DNA of 64,000 nt from a virus (IMGVR_UViG_3300020049_008481), one strand, 5' to 3'. Counted from the stretch's first letter, positions 974-43,067 are shown. Numbers and translations are program-made. Notes: generated by a model not told the origin, from the sequence alone.

Positions 974-1354
974 ATGCCTAAATATAAAGTCGTACTAACT
1001 GCAGCTAACTCTAACGCTCTCGGAGTAAAACATCACGAGGTTATCGTAGAAGCTGTTAACGAACGCTACGCTGAAGATGAAGGAAGAAACTCTTGGGCCA
1101 CAGCAGGGCTAGATGTAGCCCCGCCTCTCCCTATCCAGAGTGTGGAAGTAATTCTACTAGATCCACTGCGTGACCTAAGCGAGTTAATAGCCGAACATGT
1201 TTTGGAACCCCATGACTACGATGGGTGCGACGTGTATTGCAAGTGCGGGTTCGGGAGTAACGAAAGCAAGGACGCCTTTCTTCCTGATGAGAAATGGGCG
1301 GCTCATCTCACTGAAATCCTAATAAATGCTGGCTTTGTCAAGAAGGTAGAATAA
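974..1354 (+). CDS. hypothetical protein
   Basis: ORF abuts upstream stop (TAAATG); no motif recognised. Confidence 0.5.
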   Translation: MPKYKVVLTAANSNALGVKHHEVIVEAVNERYAEDEGRNSWATAGLDVAPPLPIQSVEVILLDPLRDLSELIAEHVLEPHDYDGCDVYCKCGFGSNESKDAFLPDEKWAAHLTEILINAGFVKKVE

Positions 1355-1654
1355 GTGGTACTAGACGATAGAGTTACTAGACAAGACGTGCAAGACCTTG
1401 TAGACCGAATGTATGACCATGGGGTCTTTGGCGAAATAGACATTCGCTGGGACTATTCAGGCAGAGGTATGTATGGTAAAACATGCGTCGGTTTCGTTAC
1501 CGACGTATCCCCTGTGCTTTTTGGGTACACTATGGGTCAAGCAATGGCAGAAATGAACGATCAGCGGCGGTTCATGGACCAGTCACCCACATGGGAAGAG
1601 AATGATGTCCCACGCAGAGCAGACAGTATGGGACGAAGCACGATCTACTACTAG
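1355..1654 (+). CDS. hypothetical protein
   Basis: ORF directly following previous gene (GTG start as translated in track). Confidence 0.45.
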   Translation: MVLDDRVTRQDVQDLVDRMYDHGVFGEIDIRWDYSGRGMYGKTCVGFVTDVSPVLFGYTMGQAMAEMNDQRRFMDQSPTWEENDVPRRADSMGRSTIYY

Positions 1655-1665
1655 AAAGAAACAAC

Positions 1666-2136
1666 ATGCCTGCATACCCAGCAAGCCTTTTTCTGGATGT
1701 GCCAGAAGCAGCAAAAACAACCCCTAGACCCCAACAGAACTTCAAGTCAAGAGTAAGTTCCTACCCCTCAACAACATTCATGACATTCACCGACTGTATT
1801 CATGGTGATCACTCAGAATGTGTAGAAAAAAGGGAATTCAAAGTCAGCGTTCCAGGCAGACTGACCAATGTAAATTATGAATGCGACTGTGACTGCCACT
1901 ACAAATACACACCTATAACCGATGGATACAAAAATTCCAAATGTCTTCAAAACTCACACGACGAATGCAGCGGGAACTTCTGCTCATGCTACTGTCATGG
2001 GCAAAAATACAGTCTGTCAGAAACATACGTATCACAGCAATGCGTGAGACGAGACCATGGTAAATGCGTATCGGGCAGGTTCTGCAAATGCTACTGTCAC
2101 GTAGAAGGGATACAAAATGCCCGCTATAGCTGCTAA
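1666..2136 (+). CDS. Cys/His-rich repeat protein A (three H-x-x-C ... CxCxCH units)
   Basis: Repeated motifs CDCDCHYKY, CSCYCHGQKY and CKCYCHVEG, each preceded by H/D-x-x-C; paralog of the next gene. Confidence 0.55.
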   Translation: MPAYPASLFLDVPEAAKTTPRPQQNFKSRVSSYPSTTFMTFTDCIHGDHSECVEKREFKVSVPGRLTNVNYECDCDCHYKYTPITDGYKNSKCLQNSHDECSGNFCSCYCHGQKYSLSETYVSQQCVRRDHGKCVSGRFCKCYCHVEGIQNARYSC

Positions 2137-2602
2137 AGATTTCCTCCTGCATCCTTTGAACGGCACCACGCCTGCACGCCCATATGATGACGTAGGAACG
2201 TTTTCTATGTGTCTAAGTGGAAATCATACTGGGTGCCTCAGCGAAGTGCCAATCTTTGGGGTGGACCCCAAGGTCGGTATGTTTGTATGTGACTGCAAAT
2301 GCCACGACGACTTTGATCTAGATGATTGCTACGAATTCTTCAAGTTCAGTGAATGCTTAAGTGGCTGGCACGAATACTGTCATGAAATTGACAACGTGGA
2401 AGAAGAAATGTGCTCATGCACTTGCCACGAAGACAGTGAACGAAACTTGATTCTTCAAGCATATGATGACATATGTGTAGAATTTGGGATTGATGACATC
2501 TCAGATTTTGAAACCATCAAAGCAATACTAATGGCACAGAAAGAAAACAAAGTGCTGGCTCAAGAGGGGCTAGCCCTATTAGAGACTATCCAGTCATGGT
2601 AA
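2117..2602 (+). CDS. Cys/His-rich repeat protein B (paralog of 1666..2136)
   Basis: Motifs CDCKCHDD and CSCTCHED preceded by GNHTGC / GWHEYC. 20-nt overlap with the upstream paralog. Acidic C-terminal tail. Confidence 0.55.
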   Translation: MPAIAAKDFLLHPLNGTTPARPYDDVGTFSMCLSGNHTGCLSEVPIFGVDPKVGMFVCDCKCHDDFDLDDCYEFFKFSECLSGWHEYCHEIDNVEEEMCSCTCHEDSERNLILQAYDDICVEFGIDDISDFETIKAILMAQKENKVLAQEGLALLETIQSW

Positions 2603-2623
2603 ACCAAACAAAGGAAAACTATA

Positions 2624-3439
2624 ATGCCTGACTTTTACCTTCCACCGGAAGCCGACAAGACCTACGCTTCCTACCGTCGAACCGTAGGGCAAGAGGTTGA
2701 AATGGCATCAGGTGCTGATGCTGCTGGCGTCTTGCATGCTGCAGGGCTAGCCCCTGACCGCAACCTTCACGGTTACGCTTGTTCCTGTCGTTACCGTGAC
2801 ACCTACCCTGTGCATCCCACTTCGGACTGCACGGCAGGCGGTGGTGAATTCATCATCGGTGGCTCTCGTGGAGTTCTGTTCGGATCGAAGACCTACTTCG
2901 ATGCAACGAACTATCTTGCGGTAGCTTTGCAGCAGGTCCGTGGCACCCACAGCCGATCGGTGGGCATGCACACTCACGTCGGGGCCAGCGACCTCACCAA
3001 TCAGCAGAAATGCCAGCTTATCAGAATCTACCTGAGATTCCAGGAGGAATTCTTGGAGTTGGCTGCGCTCAGTGACCGAGAGGTTCGTTCAAACGGCAAC
3101 ACCGAGCCTAGGCTGAACCAGAGCTACTACATCACCAGTCCTGATGTTTGGGAGTTGCCTGTTGCTGAGCTTTCCTTCCCTCTCCCCGGTCGCCCCACTC
3201 TAAACTTCGGTGGCCGAGGTGGACCTACCATCGAGTTCCGAGCCTGGAATGCTTCCCGAGTTGCCTGGCGTATGCATTTGGCAGCCGGTGTATCTTCTGC
3301 TATGGTAGAAGCTGCCAAAGCAGAGAAGCTGACTGTCCCCGGTGACGACTATACGCTTATCACTTTCCTTGAAGACATTGCCCCGCCTGATATCATTGGG
3401 CTGATGCATCGTCAGTTCAACTACCATAGGAGCCTGTAA
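2624..3439 (+). CDS. amidoligase-family protein 1 (GS/GCS2-like carboxylate-amine ligase fold, Amidoligase_2-like)
   Basis: N-terminal VGQEVEM, like the GxExEF start of the GCS2 family. GMHTHVG motif. C-terminal EFRAWNASRVAWR. All three blocks are shared with the paralog at 7140..8099. Confidence 0.45.
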   Translation: MPDFYLPPEADKTYASYRRTVGQEVEMASGADAAGVLHAAGLAPDRNLHGYACSCRYRDTYPVHPTSDCTAGGGEFIIGGSRGVLFGSKTYFDATNYLAVALQQVRGTHSRSVGMHTHVGASDLTNQQKCQLIRIYLRFQEEFLELAALSDREVRSNGNTEPRLNQSYYITSPDVWELPVAELSFPLPGRPTLNFGGRGGPTIEFRAWNASRVAWRMHLAAGVSSAMVEAAKAEKLTVPGDDYTLITFLEDIAPPDIIGLMHRQFNYHRSL

Positions 3440-4273
3440 ATGCCTATTACTCTAGCTAGACCAGAACTTTATGATCCGTTTGGATTTCTTCTAGAAGAGG
3501 AACTTCCACAGATCATGACGTATGCCTTGCCTGACGATGGCGCTGGCGTAGTATCTTTCTTAACTTCATCACGTCCAACTGACGAGGAAGTTGAGGCCCG
3601 CCTGGAAGAGATGAGGCTAGCCGAGATTGCCCGTTCCAGAACAGGATGTTACTTCAACAACTGTAATGATCCAGTAATCTGGAGCGCCCGACTACTTGTT
3701 TCCCCATCTAATTGTCCAGGTAGAGATGGTCGCTGGCGGACCAATTACAGAGCCGAGCGTGTTTCACTGTGTTCCGAGCACGCAGTCAACTGGCATGGCG
3801 GCTTCTCTAACATGACACGCCAGCGTGACCGGCATCCGGCTATGCCGACAGATACGGTAGAGGTTCCTCATACAAGAGTCGATGGGTTCAGAGATGTTAT
3901 AACGATGATCCCTAACCCCGGACACTATAGGCTAACTGGCCGAACCGGGTCATACCAAAATGTTCACATCTCCCGAGTCACTGAGCACAGTGTTCAGGTC
4001 GAAATCACTGATGACTCTGGTGCGCTAGTTCATAATTCAAGAGTGAACAATGATGATCGTGGGAGTGGAGACTACATCACAATACACCCTAGGCGCAACA
4101 CGCTTAGAACTATCTGTCAAGTCGAGATGGAAGCTGCAAGAGCATGGGGCCAGCATCATGGACGTGACCCCCTAACCCATTATGTCCTTCGCTCTGAAAG
4201 TTCCAGGGCTGCAGGCATGAGCACAAACACTTTCCGTACAATCTATAGGAGAATAAACAATGCCGTGTCGTGA
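3440..4273 (+). CDS. hypothetical protein (277 aa) inside the amidoligase cluster
   Basis: ORF abuts upstream stop (TAAATG); no motif recognised. Confidence 0.5.
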   Translation: MPITLARPELYDPFGFLLEEELPQIMTYALPDDGAGVVSFLTSSRPTDEEVEARLEEMRLAEIARSRTGCYFNNCNDPVIWSARLLVSPSNCPGRDGRWRTNYRAERVSLCSEHAVNWHGGFSNMTRQRDRHPAMPTDTVEVPHTRVDGFRDVITMIPNPGHYRLTGRTGSYQNVHISRVTEHSVQVEITDDSGALVHNSRVNNDDRGSGDYITIHPRRNTLRTICQVEMEAARAWGQHHGRDPLTHYVLRSESSRAAGMSTNTFRTIYRRINNAVS

Positions 4274-4562
4274 TATTAACTGTGATGACGAATACTGTGA
4301 TGCTGACGACTACTATGAGGACGACTACTATGAAGATGACTACTCCGAGGGAGCGGGCCGAGTGATTTGCCGTTCATGTAATGAAGAGGACAACCTCCTT
4401 GATATCCTAACAGAGACAACGTACTGCCAGTGCAGAATCCCCCCTGGAACAATGTATATCAAGGTAGAAACCCCACTGGCAACGCTGGTGGCCAATAAGC
4501 CTAGTGAGGAAGCGTGGCCGGTCGTGCCACCCGATGAGGTTAAGCCGAAAATCCATTCATGA
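4260..4562 (+). CDS. acidic Tyr/Cys-rich small protein (DDYYEDDYYEDDYSE repeat)
   Basis: ORF with three tandem 15-nt repeats encoding DDYYE units, flanked by CxxC/CQC cysteines. ATGA overlap with the downstream GGCT gene. Confidence 0.5.
   Translation: MPCRDINCDDEYCDADDYYEDDYYEDDYSEGAGRVICRSCNEEDNLLDILTETTYCQCRIPPGTMYIKVETPLATLVANKPSEEAWPVVPPDEVKPKIHS
4305..4349 (+). repeat. 3 x 15-nt tandem repeat (gacgactactatgag / gacgactactatgaa / gatgactactccgag)
   Basis: Read directly in the sequence; encodes DDYYE-DDYYE-DDYSE. Confidence 0.7.
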
Positions 4563-4951
4563 GGAAGCTTTTCGTTTACGGAACCTTAAGGCCCGGAATG
4601 GCTTTATATCCGCTACTAGCAGACGTAGTAGTAAAATCTATTCCTGCAACTATTGAAGGTGAGCTTCACTCTTTCATGGGTGGAGCTTACCCGGTTGCAT
4701 TCCTAGATAAGCCGGGAGTAATTAAGGGTGATATCCTAACATGTTTAGAACATGGAGGCACACTTAACTCAGTGTGCGCTATGGAAAGACGTGCAGGATA
4801 CACGGAAAAGCTCGTAGATGCCACTACAGAGGATGGTAGAATCATTGAAGTCATGGCATTCGACTTCACTGAATACAGATTTATGGGTACGGATTGTGCA
4901 GTCACTTCCGGTGACTGGAAACAGTTCTGTGCCGAGAATCGCTACTATTGA
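4559..4951 (+). CDS. gamma-glutamyl cyclotransferase / AIG2-like family protein
   Basis: N-terminal KLFVYGTLRPG, the hallmark hFVYGTLk.G motif of the AIG2/GGCT fold; size 130 aa. Confidence 0.7.
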   Translation: MRKLFVYGTLRPGMALYPLLADVVVKSIPATIEGELHSFMGGAYPVAFLDKPGVIKGDILTCLEHGGTLNSVCAMERRAGYTEKLVDATTEDGRIIEVMAFDFTEYRFMGTDCAVTSGDWKQFCAENRYY

Positions 4952-4976
4952 CATTTAGCAGAACATCTGCTATACT
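4948..4976 (+). promoter_or_regulatory. sigma70-like promoter TTGACA-17-TATACT with a palindromic operator-like site (TAGCAGA-ACA-TCTGCTA, 4956..4972) in the spacer
   Basis: Exact consensus -35 hexamer and 17-nt spacer. The -10 TATACT is identical to three other candidate promoters in the window. Lies in the 106-nt gap upstream of the GAT-II gene. Confidence 0.4.
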
Positions 4977-5057
4977 GATATAAATAGTGCGTCAACCAAC
5001 GTACTTCAACTTTAAAAAACAAATCCATCTAAAGACGATGGTAAACTCAGAAAGAGG

Positions 5058-6506
5058 GTGGTCCTCATTTGTGGGATCGCAGGAATTAATCTATCAGATC
5101 AAGACGCAGGCGTCATCGACGCCGCTCAACTAGCCAAGAACCTACTTCTTGGAATCCAGTCCCGAGGCCGAGACGCCTCAGGAGCCGCATGGTACGACAC
5201 TGACGGTGTGCTAATGATCCAGAAGGATGCAATGGCAGCCACCAGCTTCGTAGAACAGCTTGACCTACCGAGTGACGCTCGGAATGTCATTCTCCATACA
5301 AGGATGGCTACCCAGGGTAGCCCCGAAAACAACCACAACAATCACCCGATCATTACCGGCAACATCGTTGGTGTTCATAACGGAGTTATGCACAACGACT
5401 ACAACTTGTTCCAGAAGATCGGCCCAGGTAGACGAATTGCCCAGGTAGACACGGAAGCGATCTTTGCTGCCATCGCCTATGGGCTAGAGAAGGACTCAGA
5501 TGGCAAGCATCTGATCGCCGGTTCCATTCCAGAAATCCTTAACGAGATTTCTGGTTCTGCTGCAATTGCATGGCAGGAAATTGATGGGAATCCCACAACG
5601 TTCCGTGTAGCCAAAATCTCTGGGTCCCCGTTCGTGTTTGCCCAGACTCCCGGTGGGTCTTTCATCTTCGCTTCTGAAGCTGAAATTCTCAACAAGGCTG
5701 CTGCAGCTTCAGACGTGGAACTACTGTTCGTTGACTCATTGACTGACGGTACTTTGATGGAGATTGACGCTGGCAAGATCGTGGCAGTCAATACCTGGGA
5801 AGACAAGACGCCTACCAAGAAGACGTACACCACTGGATCAGGCTACGTCAATCGATCTACCAACACTCCGACTCAGGGCACTCTGCCTGTTACTACAACT
5901 GGCAGCGACGAGTCAATGACTGAAATCATCGCAAAGGTGATGTCAGATTCTTCCTTTCATTCCCTTGCTGCCTCCCATGGGACGGTTGTTAACCATCTCA
6001 GCGAAGGCACTTACGTCGGGAATGGCAAATACGACGAAGAGTATGTCGAACGTGAAGCGTCTATTGATAGGTTCATGAAGCATATCAGTGACGAGCCTGA
6101 CACTGTGATTGACACCGTTCGGGACCTTCACGGCTTCGTTCGCCCTGGCAACTGGGTGATGACAGGCGTAGGCAATGTCCCCATCGTTGGGCAGATTGTT
6201 TCCCTACCCCAAGCGTTCCCCTACGGAGAATACATGATCAAGGGGTACTTCCCGATCAACAAGTATGATGACTTCGACACTGTTCTAGTCTCACGAAGCA
6301 ACGAAGATTTCATTGTATTCAATCAGGCAACACAATACATCCTTGACTCTGGGACTAGTCTAACAGCAGAGATGCTCAACACGTTCCAGTTGATCCTAGA
6401 GGATCTAGGAACCTATGTGGACTCAAGTGAGGACAAGTATGTGAGAACTTCAACTGGCAAGGATTACGTAGTGGGACCTGACAAGTCCCTTGTTCCAGTG
6501 AACTAA
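5058..6506 (+). CDS. class-II (Ntn-type) glutamine amidotransferase domain protein with an uncharacterised about 260 aa C-terminal domain
   Basis: N-terminal (MVLI)CGIAGI, with RGRDASG, HTRMATQG, NHP, HNGVMHNDYNLF and DTEAI blocks, match the PurF/AsnB/GlmS-type GATase-II domain. Four residues precede the catalytic Cys, implying a propeptide or a different start. Confidence 0.65.
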   Translation: MVLICGIAGINLSDQDAGVIDAAQLAKNLLLGIQSRGRDASGAAWYDTDGVLMIQKDAMAATSFVEQLDLPSDARNVILHTRMATQGSPENNHNNHPIITGNIVGVHNGVMHNDYNLFQKIGPGRRIAQVDTEAIFAAIAYGLEKDSDGKHLIAGSIPEILNEISGSAAIAWQEIDGNPTTFRVAKISGSPFVFAQTPGGSFIFASEAEILNKAAAASDVELLFVDSLTDGTLMEIDAGKIVAVNTWEDKTPTKKTYTTGSGYVNRSTNTPTQGTLPVTTTGSDESMTEIIAKVMSDSSFHSLAASHGTVVNHLSEGTYVGNGKYDEEYVEREASIDRFMKHISDEPDTVIDTVRDLHGFVRPGNWVMTGVGNVPIVGQIVSLPQAFPYGEYMIKGYFPINKYDDFDTVLVSRSNEDFIVFNQATQYILDSGTSLTAEMLNTFQLILEDLGTYVDSSEDKYVRTSTGKDYVVGPDKSLVPVN

Positions 6507-6513
6507 GGAAAAA

Positions 6514-7152
6514 ATGACAACTGTACAAGTAACCGGAGCCGTCGTAGGATCGGCACCCCAGCGGCGATCGACTATCAGAATAGTCGTACCTGTCAGAAAA
6601 AAGCTCCCTGACGGACTAATCCAGCATTCGACCTATTCCGTGCCGCTTCCCGATTACATCAGCTTTTCTGAATGGTATGATCTAGTTGAAGAAGAAGTAT
6701 CACGGCTACGTCACAATAAACAGTGGAAAGACTCTCCATGGATTGAAATTTCCAATAAGGCCAAGGAAAAGCTAGGCAAGCTTCTTATTCATCTAGAGAA
6801 AAACCCTAACGATGTTGCTGCTGGCATAGCTTTTCATAACAAGGTTAACAGATACCTTAGTCTACATAAAGCACGAGAGAATAAGGTAAGCAGAAGCTAT
6901 ACAGCACCACCAAAGGAAGTTGAAAAGCTCCCTGGATGGAAGCTAACAACCTTCCCTATTAGCCAAACTGGTGCTGCACTAATTCACTCCATTATTGGGA
7001 CTAGAGAAGAAGCTATCAAAAAGGCTGAAAAGGTACACAAGGAGCTAGTGGGTAACACGGTTCTGATCGGCTGTAAAAGGATGGAGCCTGTAACCTTAAC
7101 TAAGCCAGACACTAAAAGCTACTACTACAACTATGGGATGTGGGACTATTGA
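6514..7152 (+). CDS. hypothetical protein (212 aa)
   Basis: ORF tiled between the GAT-II gene and amidoligase 2; no motif recognised. Confidence 0.5.
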   Translation: MTTVQVTGAVVGSAPQRRSTIRIVVPVRKKLPDGLIQHSTYSVPLPDYISFSEWYDLVEEEVSRLRHNKQWKDSPWIEISNKAKEKLGKLLIHLEKNPNDVAAGIAFHNKVNRYLSLHKARENKVSRSYTAPPKEVEKLPGWKLTTFPISQTGAALIHSIIGTREEAIKKAEKVHKELVGNTVLIGCKRMEPVTLTKPDTKSYYYNYGMWDY

Positions 7153-8099
7153 CCACTTTTGGAATGGAAATCGAATTTCAGGACAATGCTGAACTTCTCG
7201 TAGAGAAGACGCACATGCTTTACCCTGAGCTTCTGCCCTCAGATTCATTACACTCATACCACTGTGACTGCAACAACTGCATGAGTCGCACTGTGACCCT
7301 AAGAGCGCAACGTGACTCTAGTTGTTCTGGAGAGCTAATCACAAAAGTCTTCAACGAAAACGAGTTCTCTGAATTTGTAGAGGTTCTAGACTGTCTTCAG
7401 GAAGTCGCTGTCGAAGTTGACGCTGTGCCTGGAACAAACGCTGGCGTTCATGTTCACGTTGTCCCAGTTACAGAAAACTTTCTACAGTGCCATGAGTTAT
7501 TATGGCAGTTTATGCGGTGGGAGGATGCAGTCATCCGGCTGGCTAATGGAAGATTCCCTGGCCTCCGTCCGATGAATACGTCAGTTCAGGAATCAAACCT
7601 GTATAACCTTCACACCCTATGGTACGATTATGCCCCAGAGGGGGAAGCTAGGAGAAGAGAGCTATCCGGGTTCAGTGAGTACGTTAAAAAGATTGACGCC
7701 CTGCCCAGCACCTTAGAGGTCGAGGTTGGTCAGCCTAGAGGGGCAACTAGGGAATGGTGGCTAGCTAACCTATTCAACAATCATTATGAAGCGGACAGGC
7801 ACTCGAATCTTGCAATCCGCACACGTCACGACACTTGGGAGTTTAGAGTGTGGAATTCTACACGCTCAGCTTGGCGTTGGGAAATGTATGCCAAAATGTC
7901 TCTGTTGTTAGGGAACTACGAGTTCATGAGTAACCTGAAAGACGTAGAGGTGCCCTCAGACCCGGACGAGGCTCTTGCGGTCCTTCATCCTCTAGTTGGC
8001 GCAAGAGATGAACGACTTGGGGAGTTGATGGGTAAGCAGATTGCATATCAGAATAGTGCAAACTATGGGTGGACTGATTTCTATCAGGTTAGCAGGTAG
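7140..8099 (+). CDS. amidoligase-family protein 2 (paralog of 2624..3439)
   Basis: FGMEIEF N-terminus, GVHVHVV, and EFRVWNSTRSAWR, which aligns with EFRAWNASRVAWR of the paralog. Confidence 0.45.
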   Translation: MGLLTTFGMEIEFQDNAELLVEKTHMLYPELLPSDSLHSYHCDCNNCMSRTVTLRAQRDSSCSGELITKVFNENEFSEFVEVLDCLQEVAVEVDAVPGTNAGVHVHVVPVTENFLQCHELLWQFMRWEDAVIRLANGRFPGLRPMNTSVQESNLYNLHTLWYDYAPEGEARRRELSGFSEYVKKIDALPSTLEVEVGQPRGATREWWLANLFNNHYEADRHSNLAIRTRHDTWEFRVWNSTRSAWRWEMYAKMSLLLGNYEFMSNLKDVEVPSDPDEALAVLHPLVGARDERLGELMGKQIAYQNSANYGWTDFYQVSR

Positions 8100-8101
8100 A
8101 T

Positions 8102-8839
8102 ATGCCACGTAACTACACTTTTACTACAACTACCCCACATGATTTTGCCCTCTCTGCATCTGCCATAGATGAGCAGCTTGAGCGTCTATTAACCCTACAT
8201 CCTACGACAGAAGAAAGAGCGTATTATATGCCAACAACAGCACGATCTAGAACTAGAGCCGAACAGGCAAGCGAGCTTTTACAGCGCAGAGTAAACCAAA
8301 CAATCCTGTCATCGGCTACTGATATTGAACATCCCCCTAGGCTGCCAGACCTGCCACAAGACCTCAACCTTGTGACATGCACCTACAATTCCGACAGGTC
8401 ATCATACCTGCAGTACGCCTCCCAAGCGTACTCGTTCTTTCGACAGACAGCTAGCAGGTATTCCCCAGCTACGCTAAACGCAATTGCGTATATCTCAGAC
8501 AATGCACACGATGGGACAACCGCTGACCTGCCGCAAATATCTGTAGCCCAAATCCCTTACCACTACGATGATGAATCCGAAATAAAGTTTGGTGGAATCA
8601 TTGGCATGCGAATTTCTTGGCCGGGGAAAACTGTCCTTACAGTTCACCCCCAGGTTCGTAGGTCTGGCATTGGGACGTTACTTGTATCTGATTCCTCTAC
8701 CCCGCTTAAGCTCTGGGTTGGGCGAACGAACATTGCTGCACAGATTTTCCTCCTATCCAGAGGGTTCTATGCAGAAGCTTTCAACCGAAACGGAGCGGTC
8801 CTTTACAGCAGGAACTCTGACGACGCAGAAGGGTCTTGA
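8102..8839 (+). CDS. protein with a C-terminal GNAT-like acetyltransferase motif
   Basis: VHPQVRRSGIGTLLV resembles the GNAT acetyl-CoA-binding motif (Q/R-x-x-G-x-G/A); the N-terminal 150 aa are unassigned. Confidence 0.4.
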   Translation: MPRNYTFTTTTPHDFALSASAIDEQLERLLTLHPTTEERAYYMPTTARSRTRAEQASELLQRRVNQTILSSATDIEHPPRLPDLPQDLNLVTCTYNSDRSSYLQYASQAYSFFRQTASRYSPATLNAIAYISDNAHDGTTADLPQISVAQIPYHYDDESEIKFGGIIGMRISWPGKTVLTVHPQVRRSGIGTLLVSDSSTPLKLWVGRTNIAAQIFLLSRGFYAEAFNRNGAVLYSRNSDDAEGS

Positions 8840-18282: not shown

Positions 18283-19419
18283 ATGGCAATAGCGGATAGA
18301 CAATTAGCCTGGAATGATCTTCAGCCATGTGGCAAACAAAAGAAGCACAATTGGGACGGACGCCTCTGTCTCAGATGCGGATTCAAAATCCATAGGCGAA
18401 AGAAGATATCTCAGACTAAAATCAAAATCCTAAAAGAACAGCAGGATAACAAATGTTTCTACTGCAAACAAGAACTTAACGAAGAAACATTAACTGTTGA
18501 CCACAAGACCCCCATTAGCAGACAAGGTACGGATGCTATAGAAAACTTATGCCTAGCCTGCAAGAAATGCAACCTAGAGAAGAATAACTTAACGTTAGAA
18601 GAGTTCAAAATGCATCTTCCAATGCTCGCAGAATCCATGGACAAAGAACGACTAATGGAACTAGTCAGCGATAACTCATTCTGCTTTCAGCAAAAAGTTG
18701 ACGGAGACAGAATGATAGTCGAGGTTGACAACGGAGCGGTTACCGTCTACAATAGGGATGGTAAAGAATACACTCGCCAGGTAAAAGTTTTACGTCCTGT
18801 GATTAAAGAGTTCTCGAATCCAGAATTCTTTAAAGGTGTATGGCTATTCGATGGTGAATATATTAACCGCAAATATTATGTCTTTGATCTAATCAAAGTG
18901 ATCAACACAAACGGTGTTAATATCATTCAAGACGCCACTTACCATATGAGATTAGACTGCCTCAACACGATCTTCAATCATTGGGCACCTAATCACATCA
19001 TGCAACTCCCTTCGCATCTTACCTCCAAGGATAAAGAAGATTTCTTAGATAAGGTTGACGCATCTAATTCAGAAGGCGTAATTGCCAGACGAATGACTGC
19101 TCCATACCAGTCAGGTGCAAGGACAACGAACTTACTTAAGTTTAAGTTCGTTGAAACGGCTGACCTAAGAGTGACCGGCATTAATGAACAGGCAAGTATT
19201 TCCCTAGAGTGTGCTGACGATATCCCCATCGGTAATTGCACTATGAGCGCAACTAATCTTCGTAGGGTAAAGATTGGTGACATCGTTGAGATTCGCTACT
19301 TATATGTAGGGAAAAGTAATCGGCTATATCAGCCTGCGTTCATGAGAATCCGTAATGACAAGTCGGAACCAGATCCTTTTGGTTCACTTAAGCTAGTAAA
19401 TAAGGATGTACTGGTATGA
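18283..19419 (+). CDS. HNH endonuclease domain fused to an ATP-dependent polynucleotide ligase (nucleotidyltransferase) domain
   Basis: N-terminal CFYCKQ...TVDHKTPISRQG...NLCLACKKCNLEKNN (HNH with CxxC pairs). Ligase motif I KVDGDR, motif III FDGEYI, motif IV-like SEGVIARR, motif V LLKFKF. Confidence 0.6.
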   Translation: MAIADRQLAWNDLQPCGKQKKHNWDGRLCLRCGFKIHRRKKISQTKIKILKEQQDNKCFYCKQELNEETLTVDHKTPISRQGTDAIENLCLACKKCNLEKNNLTLEEFKMHLPMLAESMDKERLMELVSDNSFCFQQKVDGDRMIVEVDNGAVTVYNRDGKEYTRQVKVLRPVIKEFSNPEFFKGVWLFDGEYINRKYYVFDLIKVINTNGVNIIQDATYHMRLDCLNTIFNHWAPNHIMQLPSHLTSKDKEDFLDKVDASNSEGVIARRMTAPYQSGARTTNLLKFKFVETADLRVTGINEQASISLECADDIPIGNCTMSATNLRRVKIGDIVEIRYLYVGKSNRLYQPAFMRIRNDKSEPDPFGSLKLVNKDVLV

Positions 19420-19905: not shown

Positions 19906-21081
19906 ATGACAACCTTAACAGATAAGTTCTCTGCTCTAGAAGCAGACCTAAACGAAAGCGTTTTCGAACGTCAGCGTGAAATTCATGCAATGCTGAATGC
20001 TCTAGTTTCACAGAAGCATTTCTTCATGATCGGCCCGCCCGGTGTAGGCAAGTCCTATATGATTCGTGAGTTAGTTGATCGTGTAGATTTCTCAGACTCT
20101 CACCTAGACAATCCTTACTTCCAGTGGCTGCTAACAAAGTACACTACCCCTGAGGAAGTGCTCGGCCCGCCTTCTATTGTTGAAATGGAGAAAGGTAACT
20201 ATGTTAGGGTAACTGATCGCAAGCTTCCAACCGCTGCTATTGCGTTCCTAGATGAGATTTTCAAGGCCAACTCGTCTATTCTTAACGCCCTGCTAACCAT
20301 CTCCAACGAGAGACTGTTCTTCAACGGTGCAGATGAGGAACGTGTGCCGCTATCCTCCATCTTTGCGGCCTCCAATGAGATGCCCGCAGATGATGGGCTA
20401 TGGGCGCTTTGGGATAGATTGCATTTTCGGTTTAACGTAGGCCCACTTCACGAGCCTGGGAACTTCATTCGGATGCTTGACACCCACAACAGCACAACAC
20501 AGAAGGATGTAGAGAAGTTTCTGACTTGGAATGACATCCTGGAAGCACAGGAAGGCGTCAAGCAGGTAAAAATCTCAACAGAGATTCTAGAAATCATGCG
20601 TGCCCTTCGTGACGACCTTGCAGCTAAGGGCATTGAGCCGTCTGAGCGACGGTTCGCTGAATGTCTGCCGATCATCCAGGCTGAGGCTTATCTGAACGGT
20701 CGTGATGAGGTCGAAGTAGATGACCTACGTATTCTACGCCATGTAATGTGGGGTCGGCCCGAAGATGCTAGAGTGGCTGAGCGTGTTATCCTAGAGCTAG
20801 CTAACCCTCTAGAGAAGGAAGCCCTAGATATTCTAGAGCGAGTGGAGAAGCTGGATAAGGATCTTAACAAGGTTCTGTCTGATGCAGATAACGATAACCA
20901 GGCTGCCAGTCAGTCAGTGGAAATCTGGACGAAGCTTAAGAAGGCCAAGATCACTCTTAAGGAACTTCACGCTAAGATCGAAGAGTCAGGCCGCAAGTCC
21001 GAGATTATTGATCTTGCTGACGCAAAGGTTAACGAGGTTGCTACTCGGGTAATGAAGGACGGATTTAAGGGAGAGCTATAA
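19906..21081 (+). CDS. MoxR-like AAA+ ATPase
   Basis: FFMIGPPGVGKSYMIRELV Walker A; AIAFLDEIFKAN Walker B; size and layout typical of MoxR/CbbQ/NorQ-type ATPases. Confidence 0.65.
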   Translation: MTTLTDKFSALEADLNESVFERQREIHAMLNALVSQKHFFMIGPPGVGKSYMIRELVDRVDFSDSHLDNPYFQWLLTKYTTPEEVLGPPSIVEMEKGNYVRVTDRKLPTAAIAFLDEIFKANSSILNALLTISNERLFFNGADEERVPLSSIFAASNEMPADDGLWALWDRLHFRFNVGPLHEPGNFIRMLDTHNSTTQKDVEKFLTWNDILEAQEGVKQVKISTEILEIMRALRDDLAAKGIEPSERRFAECLPIIQAEAYLNGRDEVEVDDLRILRHVMWGRPEDARVAERVILELANPLEKEALDILERVEKLDKDLNKVLSDADNDNQAASQSVEIWTKLKKAKITLKELHAKIEESGRKSEIIDLADAKVNEVATRVMKDGFKGEL

Positions 21082-21344
21082 TGGGGGTAGCTGAAAGGTT
21101 CCTTGCAGATACATGTAGTTCCCTTCTATACCTACTTGACCGAGGCGAGTTTAATGACGAATTGGCTGACGTACGGGAGCACATTCGGTACACTAATGTC
21201 ACGGAACTTGATTCTATGCATGTAGTCTACGCTGGGAGAGAAATAGAAGTTACAGCTAGAGACTTAGGTGCTCATGTCCACACTTGGGTTTCTTCTAAAT
21301 ATGGAGATAAGTGCAGTGTATGCAGGGCATTAGATGATGAGTAA
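21081..21344 (+). CDS. hypothetical small protein
   Basis: ORF, ATAATG overlap. Confidence 0.4.
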   Translation: MGVAERFLADTCSSLLYLLDRGEFNDELADVREHIRYTNVTELDSMHVVYAGREIEVTARDLGAHVHTWVSSKYGDKCSVCRALDDE

Positions 21345-21504
21345 GGCTGAGGTATTAGCAGAAGCTTTTATGGAGAAGTACGGTCTAATTAATTGTGGTA
21401 TGCTTGTTTGTATCGGCCCCAGAGAATATCGTTCTGATATACAAAAAGCATATAATGAGGGTTACAAGCAAGGGCAAGAGTTAGTTAATAGAGCGGAGAG
21501 ATAG
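21337..21504 (+). CDS. hypothetical small protein (about 55 aa, below track cutoff)
   Basis: ATG overlapping the upstream stop (GATGATGAGTAA) and running to the TAG that overlaps the GTG start of the vWA gene. Confidence 0.3.
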   Translation: MSKAEVLAEAFMEKYGLINCGMLVCIGPREYRSDIQKAYNEGYKQGQELVNRAER

Positions 21505-23072
21505 TGAGTGATTTCCTAAGAGGATTCTTAAACAACAACAAACAGTCACCCGATGAGGCCAGCAAAAATGCTATCATCCGTGACAAATGGGATGAGGAAT
21601 CCTACCAGTCAATCCTCAAAGAAATGAAGGCACTCCGTAAGTCCGAAGAGAAGCTGGCAGATGTTGTAACGACAGGCTCATCGGCTTACGCTGATAACTT
21701 CTACGCTCTGCTTAAAGCAATGCCACAATTAGAGACACGTGGCAACATGCGGGCCTCCCATCTTGTCAATCATCGTGTAGCACAGGAAGCACAGGAACTA
21801 AAAGAGTTCAAGGAGCTTCGCACCTACACAGTGAATGATGATGTGGCAACCGCCCTGTCTTCTATCACGATGGAACCTGAGCTAGAAATCCTGTTCGATA
21901 AACTCAAAGAGGAACAGAAAGCGGCTGAGGAACTACAGAAGAAAATGGATCAGATGGCTGGCCTGGATCAGCAGGAATCAGACATTGACGATCTACTGTC
22001 CCAGCTTGAAGATGACGCTGATGAAGCAGAAGTGCAGAACTATCAGGAACAAAAAGGTGCTGTTCAAGATGCAAAAGACGCTTTACAGAAAGCCATAGAC
22101 GAAGGGGCACAAGCTCTCCAAGATGCCCTAGATGGCAAGACCGCTGATATCCAGTCGGCTCTAAAGAAAATGGCAGGTGACGCCATTGGTGAACAGGAAA
22201 GCATCGAACAGGCTGAGTCATGGGGCATGTCCCCAGGCGAGTTGAAGAGGCTCCCTGCCAATAAGCGTCTAGAGTTAGCGAAGAAGATTTCCAATGATCG
22301 ATTCAGGAGAATATCTGAACTGATCGGGCCAATGATTCGCATGGCATTCGCTGAACGACAGAAGCGAACCATCCATTCACGTGACGAAATCTATGATATT
22401 GAAACAGGCAATGACCTGTCAAGAATTATCGCCAACGAATTGCTTGCCTTAAAGCATAAGGCTTTACGTAACGACTTCATTCGTAGGTTCTATGAGGAAA
22501 GACTGCTACAGTATAAGCTTAAGGGCGAAGAAAAGCTTGCTAAGGGTGGTATAATCTTCTGCGAGGACGGGTCAGGGTCAATGTCAGGCGACAGAGAACT
22601 CTGGGCTAAAGCGGTCGGGTTGACTTTATTGCAGATCGCTAAGTCACAGAAGCGTGAATTCCATGGCATCCATTTCGGTGGACCAAGACAGATTAAACAT
22701 TTTGATTTTTCTGATATCCGTAATGTTCAGATCGAACAGCTAATTGACTTTGCTGAGGTGTTCTTTTCAGGAGGCACCTGCTTCATGACTCCCTTGTCTA
22801 AGGCGCTTGATATCCTAAAAGTACAATATGAGAAAACTGGTGCCGTTAAAGCTGACATTGTGTTCTGCACAGACGGGCAATGTGCAGTCGATCCGGCATG
22901 GCTTGAAGCGTTCAAGAAAGAACAGGATCGCCTAGGATTTAATGTCTATGGGGTGGTCATTGGTGGTACTATAATGGATGAGCCTCTTCGAACAATTTGC
23001 GATGGGAAGGTCACTACGGTTAAGCGCCTTACATCAGGAACGGATATGCGTGATGTTTTTGGGACATTATAA
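21504..23072 (+). CDS. von Willebrand factor A (vWA) domain protein with an acidic coiled-coil N-terminal half
   Basis: IIFCEDGSGSMSGD (MIDAS DxSxS) and VFCTDGQ (MIDAS T/D); encoded immediately after the MoxR-like ATPase. Confidence 0.65.
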   Translation: MSDFLRGFLNNNKQSPDEASKNAIIRDKWDEESYQSILKEMKALRKSEEKLADVVTTGSSAYADNFYALLKAMPQLETRGNMRASHLVNHRVAQEAQELKEFKELRTYTVNDDVATALSSITMEPELEILFDKLKEEQKAAEELQKKMDQMAGLDQQESDIDDLLSQLEDDADEAEVQNYQEQKGAVQDAKDALQKAIDEGAQALQDALDGKTADIQSALKKMAGDAIGEQESIEQAESWGMSPGELKRLPANKRLELAKKISNDRFRRISELIGPMIRMAFAERQKRTIHSRDEIYDIETGNDLSRIIANELLALKHKALRNDFIRRFYEERLLQYKLKGEEKLAKGGIIFCEDGSGSMSGDRELWAKAVGLTLLQIAKSQKREFHGIHFGGPRQIKHFDFSDIRNVQIEQLIDFAEVFFSGGTCFMTPLSKALDILKVQYEKTGAVKADIVFCTDGQCAVDPAWLEAFKKEQDRLGFNVYGVVIGGTIMDEPLRTICDGKVTTVKRLTSGTDMRDVFGTL

Positions 23073-37455: not shown

Positions 37456-40404
37456 TTACTCTCCCAATCCTAATTCTGCCTGCCAGTTAAACAAGTCATC
37501 GTCTGGTACAATAATTCTCCTATCACCCGTAGCATGCCGGTAGATTGCAGTCTCAAAGTTATCACGCTGCTGCTCCATTTTAAGCTCATCTTTAGCTCTT
37601 AAGACTAAGGGGTCGCCCTGCGGGATCATAGCTAGAGACAAAGGAGCGAACTGGAAAGAAGTCAAGGCATTCTTACCTCCGTGTCTTGACTTAAGAATTC
37701 TCATCTTAACTTCACCAGTTTTTTCATCCTCCTGCCTGCCTTTAATGTTGTCATCTGAAAATAAAGAGAATACGAAATCTGCAGTTTCCTCTACAGTGCC
37801 AGCGTCTCTAGCACTATCAGCTTCAATCTCTTCACCAAACTTAGTCCCACGGTTCACCTGATGCGGTGTGAATATCGTTAACTTCAAATCCTTAGCTATA
37901 GCCTTCATTTCCATGATGGCTGCGCCAGTGCGTTCGTACCCCTCACCTTTAAAGGACCTTGCCCAGTAACCTAGATAATCTACACCAACAAAATCTGGCT
38001 TAGCACCTAGTTCAAACTCGTACTGCTCTACGCAGTTTATAAATTCATCGGGGGTTACACGGTTTTTGTCAATAATTAAAAGTCTATCTCTAAAGAAATC
38101 CAGACAATCTCTATCACTAGCTTGCGGATTATAGAACCTATAGATCCGTCTAGCACGTTCGAACCACTCAGCCCGCGTTTGCTCTAAAGAGACAAACAAT
38201 ATCTTCTTACTAGGATCTGACATCAATAATCTATGGAAGATATTGAGAATCATAATAGTATTGTGTGTAACAATATGAGACTTCTCAATGAGATATAAAG
38301 AATCCTCAGAGTCTACAGAAATACACCTAATCTCAGACTCGCCCTCAGGCTTAATTGATACTATAGCTCGCATCGGGGTTGTCTTATTTATTACCGTAGG
38401 TTCTATATTCTTCCTAATAGATGAAAATGCTTTTATCTCATCTGGTAACATAATTGACAATTGACCTTCCGGTACAACATCTTCATTCCTCTGAATCCAA
38501 GATTCCATAGCAGTACCACCGAGAGAAGTTACAAGCCTTATCATGTCTTTCAAAAGCTGTCTAGATGAACTGTAATAATTACATGACTTGCGATTCTGAT
38601 TTTGTCTACTACTGCCATCACCATCCATAAGTCCTTGCAATAATGCCACTCTCTGCTCCACCGAAGAGACGAAATACTCTTCCGGGATAAACTTTAAACC
38701 ACTTTTTACATTTAACCCCATCCCCCTAATGGTAGAAATCAAATTATGAATTGTATATGCATCACAAACATCACCTTTACGGTTAATTTTTACAACAGTG
38801 TATACCTCTCGCACCCTAGCAGCCACTTCGGGATCAGGGGTGGTTAAAGCTACAGAACCCCCAGCTAAGTATCCATTAGATATCAAAGCGCCTAAGGTGT
38901 ACGGATCGACAGGTAAATCCTTATGATCGTATTGGACGGGAGAACACATGGGGATCTTGTAACGATACTCTCTATTCTTATATCCAGCATGAAGATTCTT
39001 AGACATCAAATCCTTTGTTGAATAATTAGAAGATTTTATCCATTTTCTCTCACGACCATATCGCTCTAAAACTGTCCAAATATGATCACCATCTACAATA
39101 GTAGACGTGCGATCACTAAAAGTAACCCTATATGTCTGCAATACCCCACGGTCAAATACATCTGTTATTCTAGTTGGGTGACCATTGCTACCAAAAACAT
39201 AGTCTCCAACTTCTAAATCTCCCCATTTTCTAATTCCATTAGGAGTGGGAACATCAGTATCTAAGGGGTGACCTTTTCCAACATTTGTTTTTGCAAGCAT
39301 AACAGCAACCTGGCCTGGTTTCAGACCTGGCTGGATGCGAGAATCTATAGATTCGATGCCAAGCTTCAATCCACCAGTGAACCGATCTTCTTCCCACTCA
39401 TCCCATGCTTCATCTACGCTTAGAAGAATACCACCCCTAGCTTTAATAAGCAACATCTTAAAGTCGTCCGCAGAATGTTGCTTACCAATAAGCCATTCGG
39501 TAGGGTCATTCTTTGTGCCGTCATCATCATCTGGCGGCATCTTGACAATCTTGGCCCGAGCGCCAATCGAAATAGAAATCTTCTCTGCACCACGAGCGCC
39601 AGTCTCGTCAGCATCTAGACAGACATAGACCCTGGAAGCCGAAGATAGGTAGTCATTCCAACCGTCTTGCCATGATAGCTCTCCCGGAACCCCAACAGCG
39701 TCAAAACCATACTGCTCCAATACCATCGCATCAAACTCACCGGCTGCAACCACGACCTCCGTGCTGGTCGCCACCCTATCCGCATTGAACAGTTTGGCTT
39801 TATGGCCAGTAGGGGTTAGGTATTTGTTTTTAGAGTTATCTAGTTTCCGTCCACGAATTTGAAGCACCTTACCGAAGCTTAGATAAGGAATAGCGATGCA
39901 CCCTGCTAAGAATTCTCTGCCATACTGGTCCATCATGCCAGACGCAATAACCTCTTCTTTAGTGAACCCCTGCTTAAACAGTAATGGTATAAGAGATTTG
40001 CCATCCGAATACCCTAGCTTATGTGATTCAATTGTTTCAAAAGTTAAACCACGTTCGTCCTTAAGATAATCGTAAGCAAATTCATTCTCAGCTAAAGACT
40101 CGTAGTAGTGCTCTGCTGCTGACTGCAAGACCTGCGACACCCTATAAGAATTCTCTATTTGAGAATCCTCTTTCAAAACTGGGTCACCGAAATGCTTACG
40201 AAGCTTATTTAGTGCACCACGTTCGTCGCATAAGAAACAAGTGAACAGCCCAGGAGGGTCGCCACTTGGGTCAACGTTAATATACAATCTTCCCCTTGAA
40301 GACTGATCCTCGTTACAAAAGAAGCAGGGACCATGAATTTCATTGTTCCCTGCTCTCTTGAAAGGCCACTTCTTATCTAAAAGATAACCTTCTACATCTG
40401 CCAC
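37456..40404 (-). CDS. primase-helicase (zinc-binding domain + TOPRIM primase + DnaB-family helicase) interrupted by an intein
   Basis: N-terminal CFFC...CFLC zinc finger; TOPRIM VVVAAGEFDAMV ... VCLDADETG; P-loop AKTNVGK then about 338 aa of intein before the helicase resumes (T)IMILNIFHRL; C-terminal RecA-fold helicase blocks. Confidence 0.8.
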   Translation of the reverse strand: MADVEGYLLDKKWPFKRAGNNEIHGPCFFCNEDQSSRGRLYINVDPSGDPPGLFTCFLCDERGALNKLRKHFGDPVLKEDSQIENSYRVSQVLQSAAEHYYESLAENEFAYDYLKDERGLTFETIESHKLGYSDGKSLIPLLFKQGFTKEEVIASGMMDQYGREFLAGCIAIPYLSFGKVLQIRGRKLDNSKNKYLTPTGHKAKLFNADRVATSTEVVVAAGEFDAMVLEQYGFDAVGVPGELSWQDGWNDYLSSASRVYVCLDADETGARGAEKISISIGARAKIVKMPPDDDDGTKNDPTEWLIGKQHSADDFKMLLIKARGGILLSVDEAWDEWEEDRFTGGLKLGIESIDSRIQPGLKPGQVAVMLAKTNVGKGHPLDTDVPTPNGIRKWGDLEVGDYVFGSNGHPTRITDVFDRGVLQTYRVTFSDRTSTIVDGDHIWTVLERYGRERKWIKSSNYSTKDLMSKNLHAGYKNREYRYKIPMCSPVQYDHKDLPVDPYTLGALISNGYLAGGSVALTTPDPEVAARVREVYTVVKINRKGDVCDAYTIHNLISTIRGMGLNVKSGLKFIPEEYFVSSVEQRVALLQGLMDGDGSSRQNQNRKSCNYYSSSRQLLKDMIRLVTSLGGTAMESWIQRNEDVVPEGQLSIMLPDEIKAFSSIRKNIEPTVINKTTPMRAIVSIKPEGESEIRCISVDSEDSLYLIEKSHIVTHNTIMILNIFHRLLMSDPSKKILFVSLEQTRAEWFERARRIYRFYNPQASDRDCLDFFRDRLLIIDKNRVTPDEFINCVEQYEFELGAKPDFVGVDYLGYWARSFKGEGYERTGAAIMEMKAIAKDLKLTIFTPHQVNRGTKFGEEIEADSARDAGTVEETADFVFSLFSDDNIKGRQEDEKTGEVKMRILKSRHGGKNALTSFQFAPLSLAMIPQGDPLVLRAKDELKMEQQRDNFETAIYRHATGDRRIIVPDDDLFNWQAELGLGE
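38260..39273 (-). other. class-3-like (WCT) intein with LAGLIDADG homing-endonuclease domain inserted in the helicase P-loop
   Basis: No Cys/Ser at intein position 1 (G/HPLDTDVPTPNG block A). Block B DHIW. Two LAGLIDADG-like motifs (LGALISNGYLAGG, LLQGLMDGDGSS). Block F Cys (IRCISV). C-terminal VTHN followed by Thr +1. Confidence 0.6.
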
Positions 40405-41944: not shown

Positions 41945-42979
41945 TTACTTCTTAGCCTTTTCAAGATAATGATCCCGACAAAGCACATTCCTATAACGGA
42001 TCTTACTTAACTCTGATTGCTTCTTAGCTACCATCTCTGTACAACCATCTACATCACATGGATATTCCTCTTCTGGCTCAGAAGATTCAGGGGCAATACT
42101 TGACATGGTTTTCTTCCTGTTAGCTATCTCAACAGCAACCTCTTCTTCTTTAATAGCATCCTTGATGATGTCATCATCAGTAGTCCCATTAGCTTTAATC
42201 AGTGCTTCGTCGCTAATGTTAATTTCAACCGTGTCCTTCAAATCTACATCACCATAAATGTAGGATACGATCCTATCGTAGTCATCTTCAAAGTTGACAG
42301 GGATTTCAGCAGGCAACTTACCCGAACGGTCCTTAACCCAGGGGAACTGGGGGGACTGCACAGTCGTAAGAACCCGGACCTGCTTTCTCACTGGCTTATT
42401 GTCCACTAATTCGCTGACAGTGTTGGTCTTTAGTAGCAGAGCCAGGTCAACATAGCCAGTAATCTGCTTACCCATTTCACCTTGGATACCTGGGTTGAAC
42501 CAGATCTGCCCACTGTCCCCGTCATTGACTTCCTTTAGATGCACAGTGAAGATAACATTCATTTCAAGGTTTCTAAAACCAGAAACAATAGCTTGCATCT
42601 GTGAACCGATGAAACCCCAATCCTGAAGATTGGTTGCGTCTCGGCGCTGTGAGGCAAGCCGCTCACGAATGATGATTCTTTGCACCTCATCGATTGTATC
42701 GATGACCACAGTTTCAACAGGAAAACCTAATGTCTGCTCACGTACCAGGGGGTCCTGGTCTAGCATGCGTTTCAGGTTGAGAAGGTCATCCAACGACTTA
42801 ATTTCAACGAAAGGGATATCCCTATCAGCAATCGACATAAGTCCTGCTTCAGCAGAAGCATAAATAGGATTCGGGAAGCAACTCGATAGTAAGGTCTTAC
42901 CAGCACCGGAGTTTCCCGCAATTAGTGCTTTTATGTAGCGTCCATAGTCAGACGCACCTGTTCTTTTGATCTGTAACAT
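41945..42979 (-). CDS. AAA_24-type RecA-fold ATPase (Sak4-like) with C-terminal Cys cluster
   Basis: LIAGNSGAGKTLLSSCFPNPIYASAEAG Walker A block typical of phage AAA_24 ATPases; C-terminal CDVDGC...C..H zinc-ribbon-like. Confidence 0.55.
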   Translation of the reverse strand: MLQIKRTGASDYGRYIKALIAGNSGAGKTLLSSCFPNPIYASAEAGLMSIADRDIPFVEIKSLDDLLNLKRMLDQDPLVREQTLGFPVETVVIDTIDEVQRIIIRERLASQRRDATNLQDWGFIGSQMQAIVSGFRNLEMNVIFTVHLKEVNDGDSGQIWFNPGIQGEMGKQITGYVDLALLLKTNTVSELVDNKPVRKQVRVLTTVQSPQFPWVKDRSGKLPAEIPVNFEDDYDRIVSYIYGDVDLKDTVEINISDEALIKANGTTDDDIIKDAIKEEEVAVEIANRKKTMSSIAPESSEPEEEYPCDVDGCTEMVAKKQSELSKIRYRNVLCRDHYLEKAKK

Positions 42980-43067
42980 ATCTCTTTTCTTTCTTCGCCA
43001 TCTCTGGACTTAATCAATAAGCATTTGCTTTATTGGATATATTATACCACATATTGAAAATGTTTGC

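Follow-up and report, generated by a model that had tools for sequence, protein, structure and literature searches.

Two overlapping phage genes encode tandem copies of a widespread, unannotated Cys5His2 unit

Two adjacent, overlapping genes of the viral sequence IMGVR_UViG_3300020049_008481, analysed here as a stretch of 64,000 nucleotides (the window; a phage-like region of 44% GC), encode proteins built around five copies of a small Cys/His-rich unit, C-x4-H-x2-C-x(4-20)-C-x-C-x-C-H, that we call the C5H2 unit. By profile and pattern searches, this unit is a mini-domain that is widespread among phages, bacteria and archaea and lacks annotation, and tandem arrays of it, such as those of the two genes, are rare. 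We favour, with some reserve, a view of the unit as a mini-domain that is autonomous and stabilised by metal.

The ORF list, translation and composition place three units in the first open reading frame, ORF1 (1666..2136, + strand; 156 residues, isoelectric point (pI) 7.9), and two in the second, ORF2 (2117..2602, + strand; 161 residues, pI 4.2), where they are followed by an acidic helical tail. The seven ligand-type positions are invariant in all five units. Unit 1 (CIHGDHSEC-x20-CDCDCH; ORF1 residues 44-78, 1795..1899, +) reaches a domain score of 43 bits against a 10-unit profile, and unit 2 (CLQNSHDEC-SGNF-CSCYCH; ORF1 residues 93-111, 1942..1998, +), whose compact form, with an x4 linker, is the usual one in the family, scores 20.9 bits against an independent viral profile (A3, described below), with most of the profile length covered. 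The CxCxCH segment of unit 3 (CVRRDHGKC-VSGRF-CKCYCH; ORF1 residues 126-145, 2041..2100, +) is the nearest match to that of unit 2 at the DNA level (90% over 20 nucleotides). Unit 4 (CLSGNHTGC-x17-CDCKCH; ORF2 residues 32-63, 2210..2305, +) and unit 5 (CLSGWHEYC-x10-CSCTCH; ORF2 residues 80-104, 2354..2428, +) complete the set. The gap between H-x2-C and C-x-C-x-C-H is thus 4, 5, 10, 17 or 20 residues, Gly is found three positions after the first Cys (C1+3) in three of the five units, and a Ser or Thr lies upstream of the first Cys in all five (four times at -2, once at -3). When the 64 kb was scanned in six frames with a regular expression, six C-x-C-x-C-H hexapeptides turned up, five of which (CDCDCH, CSCYCH, CKCYCH, CDCKCH and CSCTCH) are those of ORF1 and ORF2, and the same five units account for five of the window's 13 C-x-C-x-C matches. 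The units hold 15 of the 16 cysteines and all seven histidines of ORF1, and 10 of the 12 cysteines and five of the six histidines of ORF2. The original prediction, made from the DNA alone, had described the upstream element as H/D-x-x-C at a distance of 10-25 residues; H-x2-C is indeed present, whereas Asp never takes the place of the His, the gap is 4-20 residues and the first Cys of the unit had been overlooked. Its view that the spacing is more regular than that of a chance Cys-rich sequence agrees with our data, in which the repeat is real and non-random, all five units keeping the seven residues.

ORF1 and ORF2 overlap by 20 nucleotides, with ORF2 in the +1 frame, and align with each other in BLASTP with E = 5e-9 and 29% identity over 120 residues. 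Their N-termini are similar (MPA..FL..TTP.RP): the segment MPAYPASLFLDVPEAAKTTPRP of ORF1 (1666..1731, +), which matches no family, is common to both proteins, and its counterpart in ORF2 is MPAIAAKDFLLHPLNGTTPARP (2117..2182, +; BLASTP, alignment A7). The acidic C-terminal tail of ORF2 (residues 106-161, 2432..2599, +) has three helices predicted by AlphaFold2. The JGI protein P0001, from a contig of 130,702 bp, is identical to the ORF1 protein. Judging from the similarity of ORF1 and ORF2 to each other these two proteins are paralogs, and the ORF coordinates and the BLASTP alignment agree with the earlier description of two adjacent overlapping genes carrying five units.

Several lines of evidence bear on whether the region is translated. 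With a codon model trained on the long genes of the window, the annotated frames of ORF1 and ORF2 score highest of the six, although the score of ORF1 is low (-0.17). Both synonymous codons (TGT/TGC for Cys, CAT/CAC for His) are used at each of the seven invariant positions across the five units, the DNA-level repeats in the region are only 20-23 nucleotides long and lie over the CxCxCH codons, and no Rfam family matches the ORF1/ORF2 region. Taken together with the paralogy of the two proteins, these observations point to old duplications of units and of a gene that were kept at the protein level. By these criteria ORF1 and ORF2 are translated, so that the region is not the untranslated one that would have undone the original prediction, and their arrangement is neither a split gene nor a DNA repeat.

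The searches for close relatives of the two proteins found none. No megablast or tblastn match to ORF1 or ORF2 was found in 50,697 phage records, a word-indexed search of 5.8 billion proteins returned ORF1 itself only, and scans of viral_contigs (IMG/VR) with ORF1, ORF2 and the neighbouring amidoligase and GATase gave no useful relative. A concatenate of 36 units (1,164 residues) produced 893 candidates, none with E <= 10 at the size of that database. With a five-unit profile and full HMMER, five of 1.84 billion representative proteins reached E <= 0.001, namely ORF1, ORF2, P0003, P0004 and P0005. We rejected P0003, a eukaryote-like kringle-repeat protein of 1,867 residues, as a spurious profile match. 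P0004 (155 residues, with three units of the form C-x4-H-x2-C-x4-CxCxCH) and P0005 (100 residues, two units), both from Logan assemblies, resemble ORF1 and ORF2 in being small proteins with tandem arrays of the C5H2 unit, and the seven residues are kept in all 10 units of these four multi-unit proteins. They differ in being only ~23-26% identical to ORF2, in having neither the N-terminal segment common to ORF1 and ORF2 nor the helical tail, and in their gene neighbours, which include an integrase and a weak glycosyltransferase match and no amidoligase cassette.

Since a single unit cannot reach significance in a database of 1.84 billion proteins, DNA was searched directly, with a back-translated pattern of the x4-linker form of the unit that was run on viral_contigs and genome_contigs. 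The pattern matches at least 120 viral loci and at least 120 loci in bacterial and archaeal genome contigs. As a control, a permuted pattern (C-x4-C-x2-H-x4-C-x-C-x-H-C) was run on the whole viral collection and gave 54 viral loci, mostly CHCH low-complexity sequence. Of the 120 real viral matches listed, 111 contain no stop codon, and 102 carry no more than a single additional Cys or His. Two features that the pattern does not impose separate real matches from control matches: Ser or Thr at -3 is present in 82 of 108 real matches listed and in 4 of 31 control matches, and Gly at C1+3 in 41 of 111 and 0 of 33, respectively. A stricter pattern that also demands Ser (TCN) and Gly finds 57 viral loci, 14 of which overlap the first 120, against an expectation of ~0.2 loci (the control count scaled by codon frequencies). 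In the reverse direction, profile A3, built from 75 viral single-unit sequences only and thus independent of the window, scores 40.6 bits on ORF1 and 19.7 bits on ORF2, with no other ORF of the window below E = 0.7. On these comparisons the pattern matches form a genuine family and not a chance pattern. If the first 120 viral matches are an unbiased sample, roughly 490 members with the x4 linker are to be expected in IMG/VR.

Among the genome-contig matches listed, about half are genuine and the rest are CHCH-type low-complexity junk. The genuine ones fall in Actinomycetota, Myxococcota, Bacteroidota, Bacillota and Pseudomonadota among bacteria, and, among archaea, in taxa such as Nitrosopumilus, Thermoplasmata and Methanolobus. 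When at least two scoring units per ORF are required, only P0004 and P0005 pass beyond the window, and one ORF (locus L066) has a second, degenerate unit. Two IMG/VR contigs (L092 and L037) each carry two separate unit-bearing ORFs, one of them with a long linker, which indicates that dispersed paralogs within one phage occur besides tandem arrays. The repeat had first been called novel, which does not hold in the sense of unique given its recurrence in these viral and genome loci and the presence of an annotated copy in cultured Arthrobacter phages; its conservation in homologs, by which the original prediction was to stand or fall, is seen both in the multi-unit proteins and in hundreds of single-unit relatives that keep the seven residues.

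The typical member of the family is short (median length ~61 residues), and in 73 of 130 members no more than 12 residues separate the unit from the C-terminus. Copies beyond the window are, almost without exception, single. A logo of 103 distinct units has a hydrophobic residue at -4, Ser or Thr at -3 (70%), Gly at C1+3 (47%) and the seven ligands, the remaining positions being polar and variable. An example from a cultured phage is gp068 of the Arthrobacter phage Tribby (YP_010666153.1; MNPDCRDGKHQACSGDGWDLEKDEPCPCNCPCHTKES), which has 37 residues with one unit and is annotated as 'hypothetical protein'. An ORF of identical type, also of 37 residues with a single unit (MNPDCRDGKHQACSGDGWDLEKDEPCPCNCPCHTKE), lies unannotated between gp61 and gp62 of the Arthrobacter phage Mudcat (NC_031224.2, ~42965-43078; 2501-2614 of locus L302). 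The 'RDF' annotation that appeared under the tblastn match to Mudcat was rejected, as the unit-bearing ORF merely abuts gene 61 by 4 nucleotides. The single-unit phage mini-proteins, with their upstream Ser/Thr and Gly at C1+3, share the C5H2 signature with the units of the window, and by reciprocal profile match they are true relatives of these; they differ in having one unit in 30-100 residues, whereas ORF1 and ORF2 have three and two, with long linkers and additional N- and C-terminal segments.

In other members the unit is fused in frame to Lsr2, to Phage_zn_bind_8, to a double zinc ribbon or to an N-acetylglucosamine (GlcNAc) transferase. The first three are modules for DNA binding or of other zinc types, and their presence speaks for the metal-module reading given below. 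In Streptomyces sp. NP160 (NZ_VDMJ01000035.1, locus L197) it is in frame with a complete Lsr2, comprising both the dimerisation and the DNA-binding domain, with no stop codon in between (5385-5849 of the reverse-complemented locus), and translation could also begin at an internal Met immediately ahead of the Lsr2 part. The 135 immediate neighbours of single-unit genes include no gene that regularly accompanies the family, as would be expected of a generic module. The short members, the C-terminal placement and the existence of Tribby gp068, which is little more than one unit, all argue that the unit is autonomous.

Curated libraries have no model for it. ORF1 matches no family in Pfam-A 2025, PHROGs v4, NCBIfam 20 or PADLOC 2.0, and ORF2 matches only ZapC_N of Pfam-A 2025, at E = 0.08 and short of the cut-off of that model, and nothing in the other three. 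When 75 family members were compared with Pfam, no family matched more than 3 of them, and the matches to DUF7949 (2 of 75 members, best E = 0.05), EGF and toxin families were set aside as noise from Cys composition. Some single-unit members match phrog_15767 and phrog_36831, for which no function is given, weakly (E = 1e-4 to 0.1). Profiles A1 and A3 found nothing significant among 177,635 PDB sequences, the best match being a 13-residue bacteriocin stretch with E = 0.3, and a full-text literature search with motif strings and 'Cys5His2' retrieved nothing relevant. The earlier remark that the repeat fits neither zinc ribbons nor metallothioneins nor RING domains is therefore in keeping with Pfam-A, PHROGs and NCBIfam, none of whose curated models matches ORF1 or ORF2.

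Several known Cys-rich modules nevertheless have features in common with the unit. The retroviral-type CCHC zinc knuckle (C-x2-C-x4-H-x4-C) shares with it the C-x4-H spacing, a turn Gly, the very small size and the lack of a hydrophobic core, whereas the unit has no C-x2-C pair, has x2-C and not x4-C after the His, carries the additional C-x-C-x-C-H and is not matched by the Pfam model. The fungal GAL4-type Zn2Cys6 domain (PF00172) is a Cys-dense module of ~30 residues, with ligands too many for one zinc and too few for two separate sites, so that bridging thiolates are required; it is a eukaryotic DNA-binding domain of the form C-x2-C-x6-C-x5-12-C-x2-C-x6-8-C, without His, and it resembles the unit in principle only, with no hidden Markov model (HMM) match between them. 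Metallothioneins and the CXC, pre-SET and tesmin domains have at least 9 cysteines for 3-4 metals, in other spacings; their C-x-C motifs and high Cys density, which suggests a polynuclear thiolate cluster, recall the unit, but the latter has a fixed set of five Cys and two His and no HMM match to them. The SWIM zinc finger (C-x-C-x(n)-C-x-H) differs in that the unit ends in CH, with C-x-C-x-C-H following other ligands, and here too there is no Pfam match. Finally, Phage_zn_bind_8 (PF24623) and DZR (PF12773) are small Cys-rich phage modules found in the same polypeptides as the unit; they are separate domains, ribbons based on C-x2-C knuckles, and the unit lies outside the regions covered by these models.

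The five cysteines and two histidines of the unit are most likely metal ligands, and metal binding is a reasonable reading of this pattern. The metal is probably zinc, in view of the knuckle-like C-x4-H with its Gly, the lack of a hydrophobic core and the very small size. A single tetrahedral site has no need of seven ligands, and two independent sites would need one more, which favours a two-zinc cluster with one bridging thiolate, and the analogy with Zn2Cys6 clusters likewise suggests a two-metal site with one bridging Cys; a single zinc site with spare residues is the fallback. In such a structure C-x4-H-x2-C would form a knuckle, followed by a variable loop, and C-x-C-x-C-H would run as a beta-strand presenting alternate side chains. 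The hydrophilic and variable character of the rest of the unit is what would be expected if the metal, and not a hydrophobic core, holds the fold. Duplications of units and of a gene would have given ORF1, with three units, and ORF2, with two units and the acidic helical tail, and the two proteins may bind a macromolecule of the host or the phage in a multivalent manner, or act as adaptors for it, rather than being enzyme substrates. As ORF1 is near neutral, whereas ORF2 is strongly acidic and has the helical tail, the kinds of partner need not be the same.

Several points weigh against this view. Metal binding is read from the ligand pattern, and the knuckle, the strand and the binuclear geometry from the number and spacing of the ligands only, as the AlphaFold2 models are unusable: the predicted local distance difference test (pLDDT) score is 55 for the unit with a 10-row alignment and 45 for ORF2 with 4 rows, where residues 1-107 stay below 50 and only the tail helices (106-123, 131-140 and 145-160, at pLDDT 52-69) rise above it. 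These models, unreliable here, do put the CxCxCH segments in strands. The Ser/Thr found at -2 in four units of the window is displaced from the -3 of the family, the low pI of ORF2 argues against nucleic-acid binding by this protein, and the fusions are heterogeneous, a glycosyltransferase included, so that they indicate no single class of partner. The tight packing of the two genes with amidoligase and GGACT genes (see below) also leaves room for a functional link specific to this lineage. A more far-reaching version, which we put forward tentatively and regard as rather doubtful, is that the unit has a structurally new polynuclear fold, for example Zn2(Cys5His2) with one thiolate as a bridge, and defines a large unnamed family of portable binding modules in phages of bacteria and archaea, of which ORF1 and ORF2 are rare 'beads-on-a-string' forms whose multivalency provides a host-takeover function, possibly together with the cassette in this single lineage. 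If true, this function would be one that the single-unit proteins lack.

Of the other explanations, we first consider that the proteins are metallothionein-like stores or sequestrators of Zn, Cu or Cd, which buffer or steal metal during infection and bind no macromolecule. Cysteines make up 7.5-10% of their residues, C-x-C is typical of clusters of the metallothionein/CXC type, and tandem copies would raise capacity, but the strict seven-residue signature and the long variable linkers are unlike metallothioneins, no metallothionein model matches, and the great majority of members have one unit only, frequently attached to further domains, an arrangement more fitting for a structural or interaction module than for bulk storage. 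We judge this explanation improbable.

A second alternative arises from the genes that follow ORF2. From 974 to 4951 the genes follow one another closely on the same strand; they include a weak Amidoligase_2 ORF (2624-3439, +), an unknown ORF (3440-4273, +) and a GGACT ORF (4559-4951, +). A strong promoter-like site (4948-4976) precedes a class-II GATase ORF (5058-6506, +), and beyond it are another unknown ORF (6514-7152, +), a second weak Amidoligase_2 ORF (7140-8099, +) and a weak GNAT ORF (8102-8839, +). The tight same-strand packing makes it likely that ORF1 and ORF2 are transcribed together with part of this cassette, and they are probably co-transcribed with the block 974-4951. Arthrobacter phages have GATases 36-37% identical to this one, and the cassette as a whole (2624-8839) resembles the phiEco32/RIO-1-type cassette (PMC5498523), a phage module that is conserved in its own right and whose hypothesised role is in the chemistry of peptidoglycan peptide side chains (PMC5498523).

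ORF1 and ORF2 could then be substrates or scaffolds of the amidoligase/GGACT/GATase cassette, either as multi-core precursors like those of peptides that ribosomes make and that are modified after translation (RiPPs) or as receivers of amino-acid tags on side chains or at the C-terminus. In addition to their place in the packed block with Amidoligase_2 and GGACT, with the GATase after the promoter-like site, the N-terminal segment common to the two proteins can be read as a leader, and multi-core precursors processed by ligases exist, according to the title of PMC5934393. However, homologs of the cassette proteins are absent from 286 unit-bearing loci (2.37 Mb), the 135 genes immediately next to single-unit genes include no amidoligase, GATase or GGACT family, and the neighbours of P0004 and P0005 are unrelated to the cassette. 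Conversely, three cultured phages that carry the cassette, Ottawa, ctwe8250 and Lyrsu01, lack the unit over 7 kb on either side, and a metagenome scan with the GATase gave one locus (29% identity, 21% GC), which is without the unit. The cassette is, moreover, conserved independently with its own proposed chemistry, and apart from the Ser/Thr no Asp, Glu or Lys that could act as donor or acceptor is conserved in the family. We regard a substrate role as quite improbable; the adjacency is most simply explained as coincidental or lineage-specific, and the functional link to the amidoligase cluster that the original prediction had proposed finds no co-occurrence to support it in any of these comparisons. 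An ORF inside the cassette (4260-4562, +; 100 residues) has an extremely Asp/Tyr/Glu-rich tract, DDEYCDADDYYEDDYYEDDYSEG, followed by CRSC...CQC, and matches no family; if composition is the guide, one would look here for a modification substrate or mimic before turning to ORF1 or ORF2.

We also hold it to be decidedly improbable that each unit ligates an Fe-S cluster ([2Fe-2S] or [4Fe-4S] with Cys/His ligands), the proteins then being sensors or regulators of redox state or nitric oxide by analogy with WhiB. Five Cys and two His could provide ligation of the Cys3His or Cys4 type, and many members come from phages and genomes of actinobacteria, which are rich in small Fe-S regulators. WhiB-like (Wbl) proteins are common in actinophages, and a WhiB protein is also encoded in one Arthrobacter phage region viewed in a different context. 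The unit nevertheless has no similarity to Wbl or any other Fe-S family, a 19-residue core without a hydrophobic shell is atypical for the shielding of a cluster, and the surplus ligands and the knuckle-like C-x4-H with Gly are more zinc-like. That the region is non-coding, or the motif a chance or low-complexity artefact, as the low codon-usage score of ORF1 and the junk among the genome-contig matches listed might suggest, is effectively refuted by the synonymous variation at each invariant position, the paralogy of ORF1 and ORF2, the conservation in P0004, P0005 and hundreds of ORFs, the contrast with the control pattern, the lack of an Rfam family and the shortness of the DNA repeats.

Protein parts of this general kind, small Cys/His modules, are already known, and what the C5H2 unit adds to the understanding of the phage of the window is modest. 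Its wider relevance lies in a strict seven-residue signature that is found in hundreds of viral contigs and in genomes of bacteria and archaea and yet has no curated model, no PDB sequence match and no searchable paper. In most cases the unit stands alone as a mini-protein of about 35-60 residues. With a name and one solved structure, a recurring class of 'hypothetical' phage mini-proteins could be annotated, and the structure would tell whether the seven ligands build a new binuclear site.

Other genes of the window also deserve mention. A primase/DnaB-like helicase of 982 residues (37456-40404, -) has a LAGLIDADG_3 insert, and its PHROG 'terminase' matches look intein-derived; a DnaE-type DNA polymerase III alpha of 1,394 residues (44869-49053, -) has a weak Intein_splicing match over residues 282-548. 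Both are likely to be intein-containing replication genes. One ORF (18283-19419, +) combines an HNH endonuclease domain (residues 58-112) with a subsequent ATP-dependent DNA ligase domain, and 19906-23072 (+) holds a MoxR-vWA pair of a phage, made up of a bpMoxR-type AAA+ ATPase and, after it, a protein with a vWA domain. Upstream of ORF1, an ORF of 103 residues (662-973, +) has a weak match to the zinc motif of cytidine/dCMP deaminases (HCE...PCRYC) and matches phrog_36670, a family with no function assigned. Seven + strand genes of the first 4.5 kb, ORF1 and ORF2 included, start with Met-Pro (ATGCC...; starts at 4, 974, 1666, 2117, 2624, 3440 and 4260), which is an unusual bias in the second codon.

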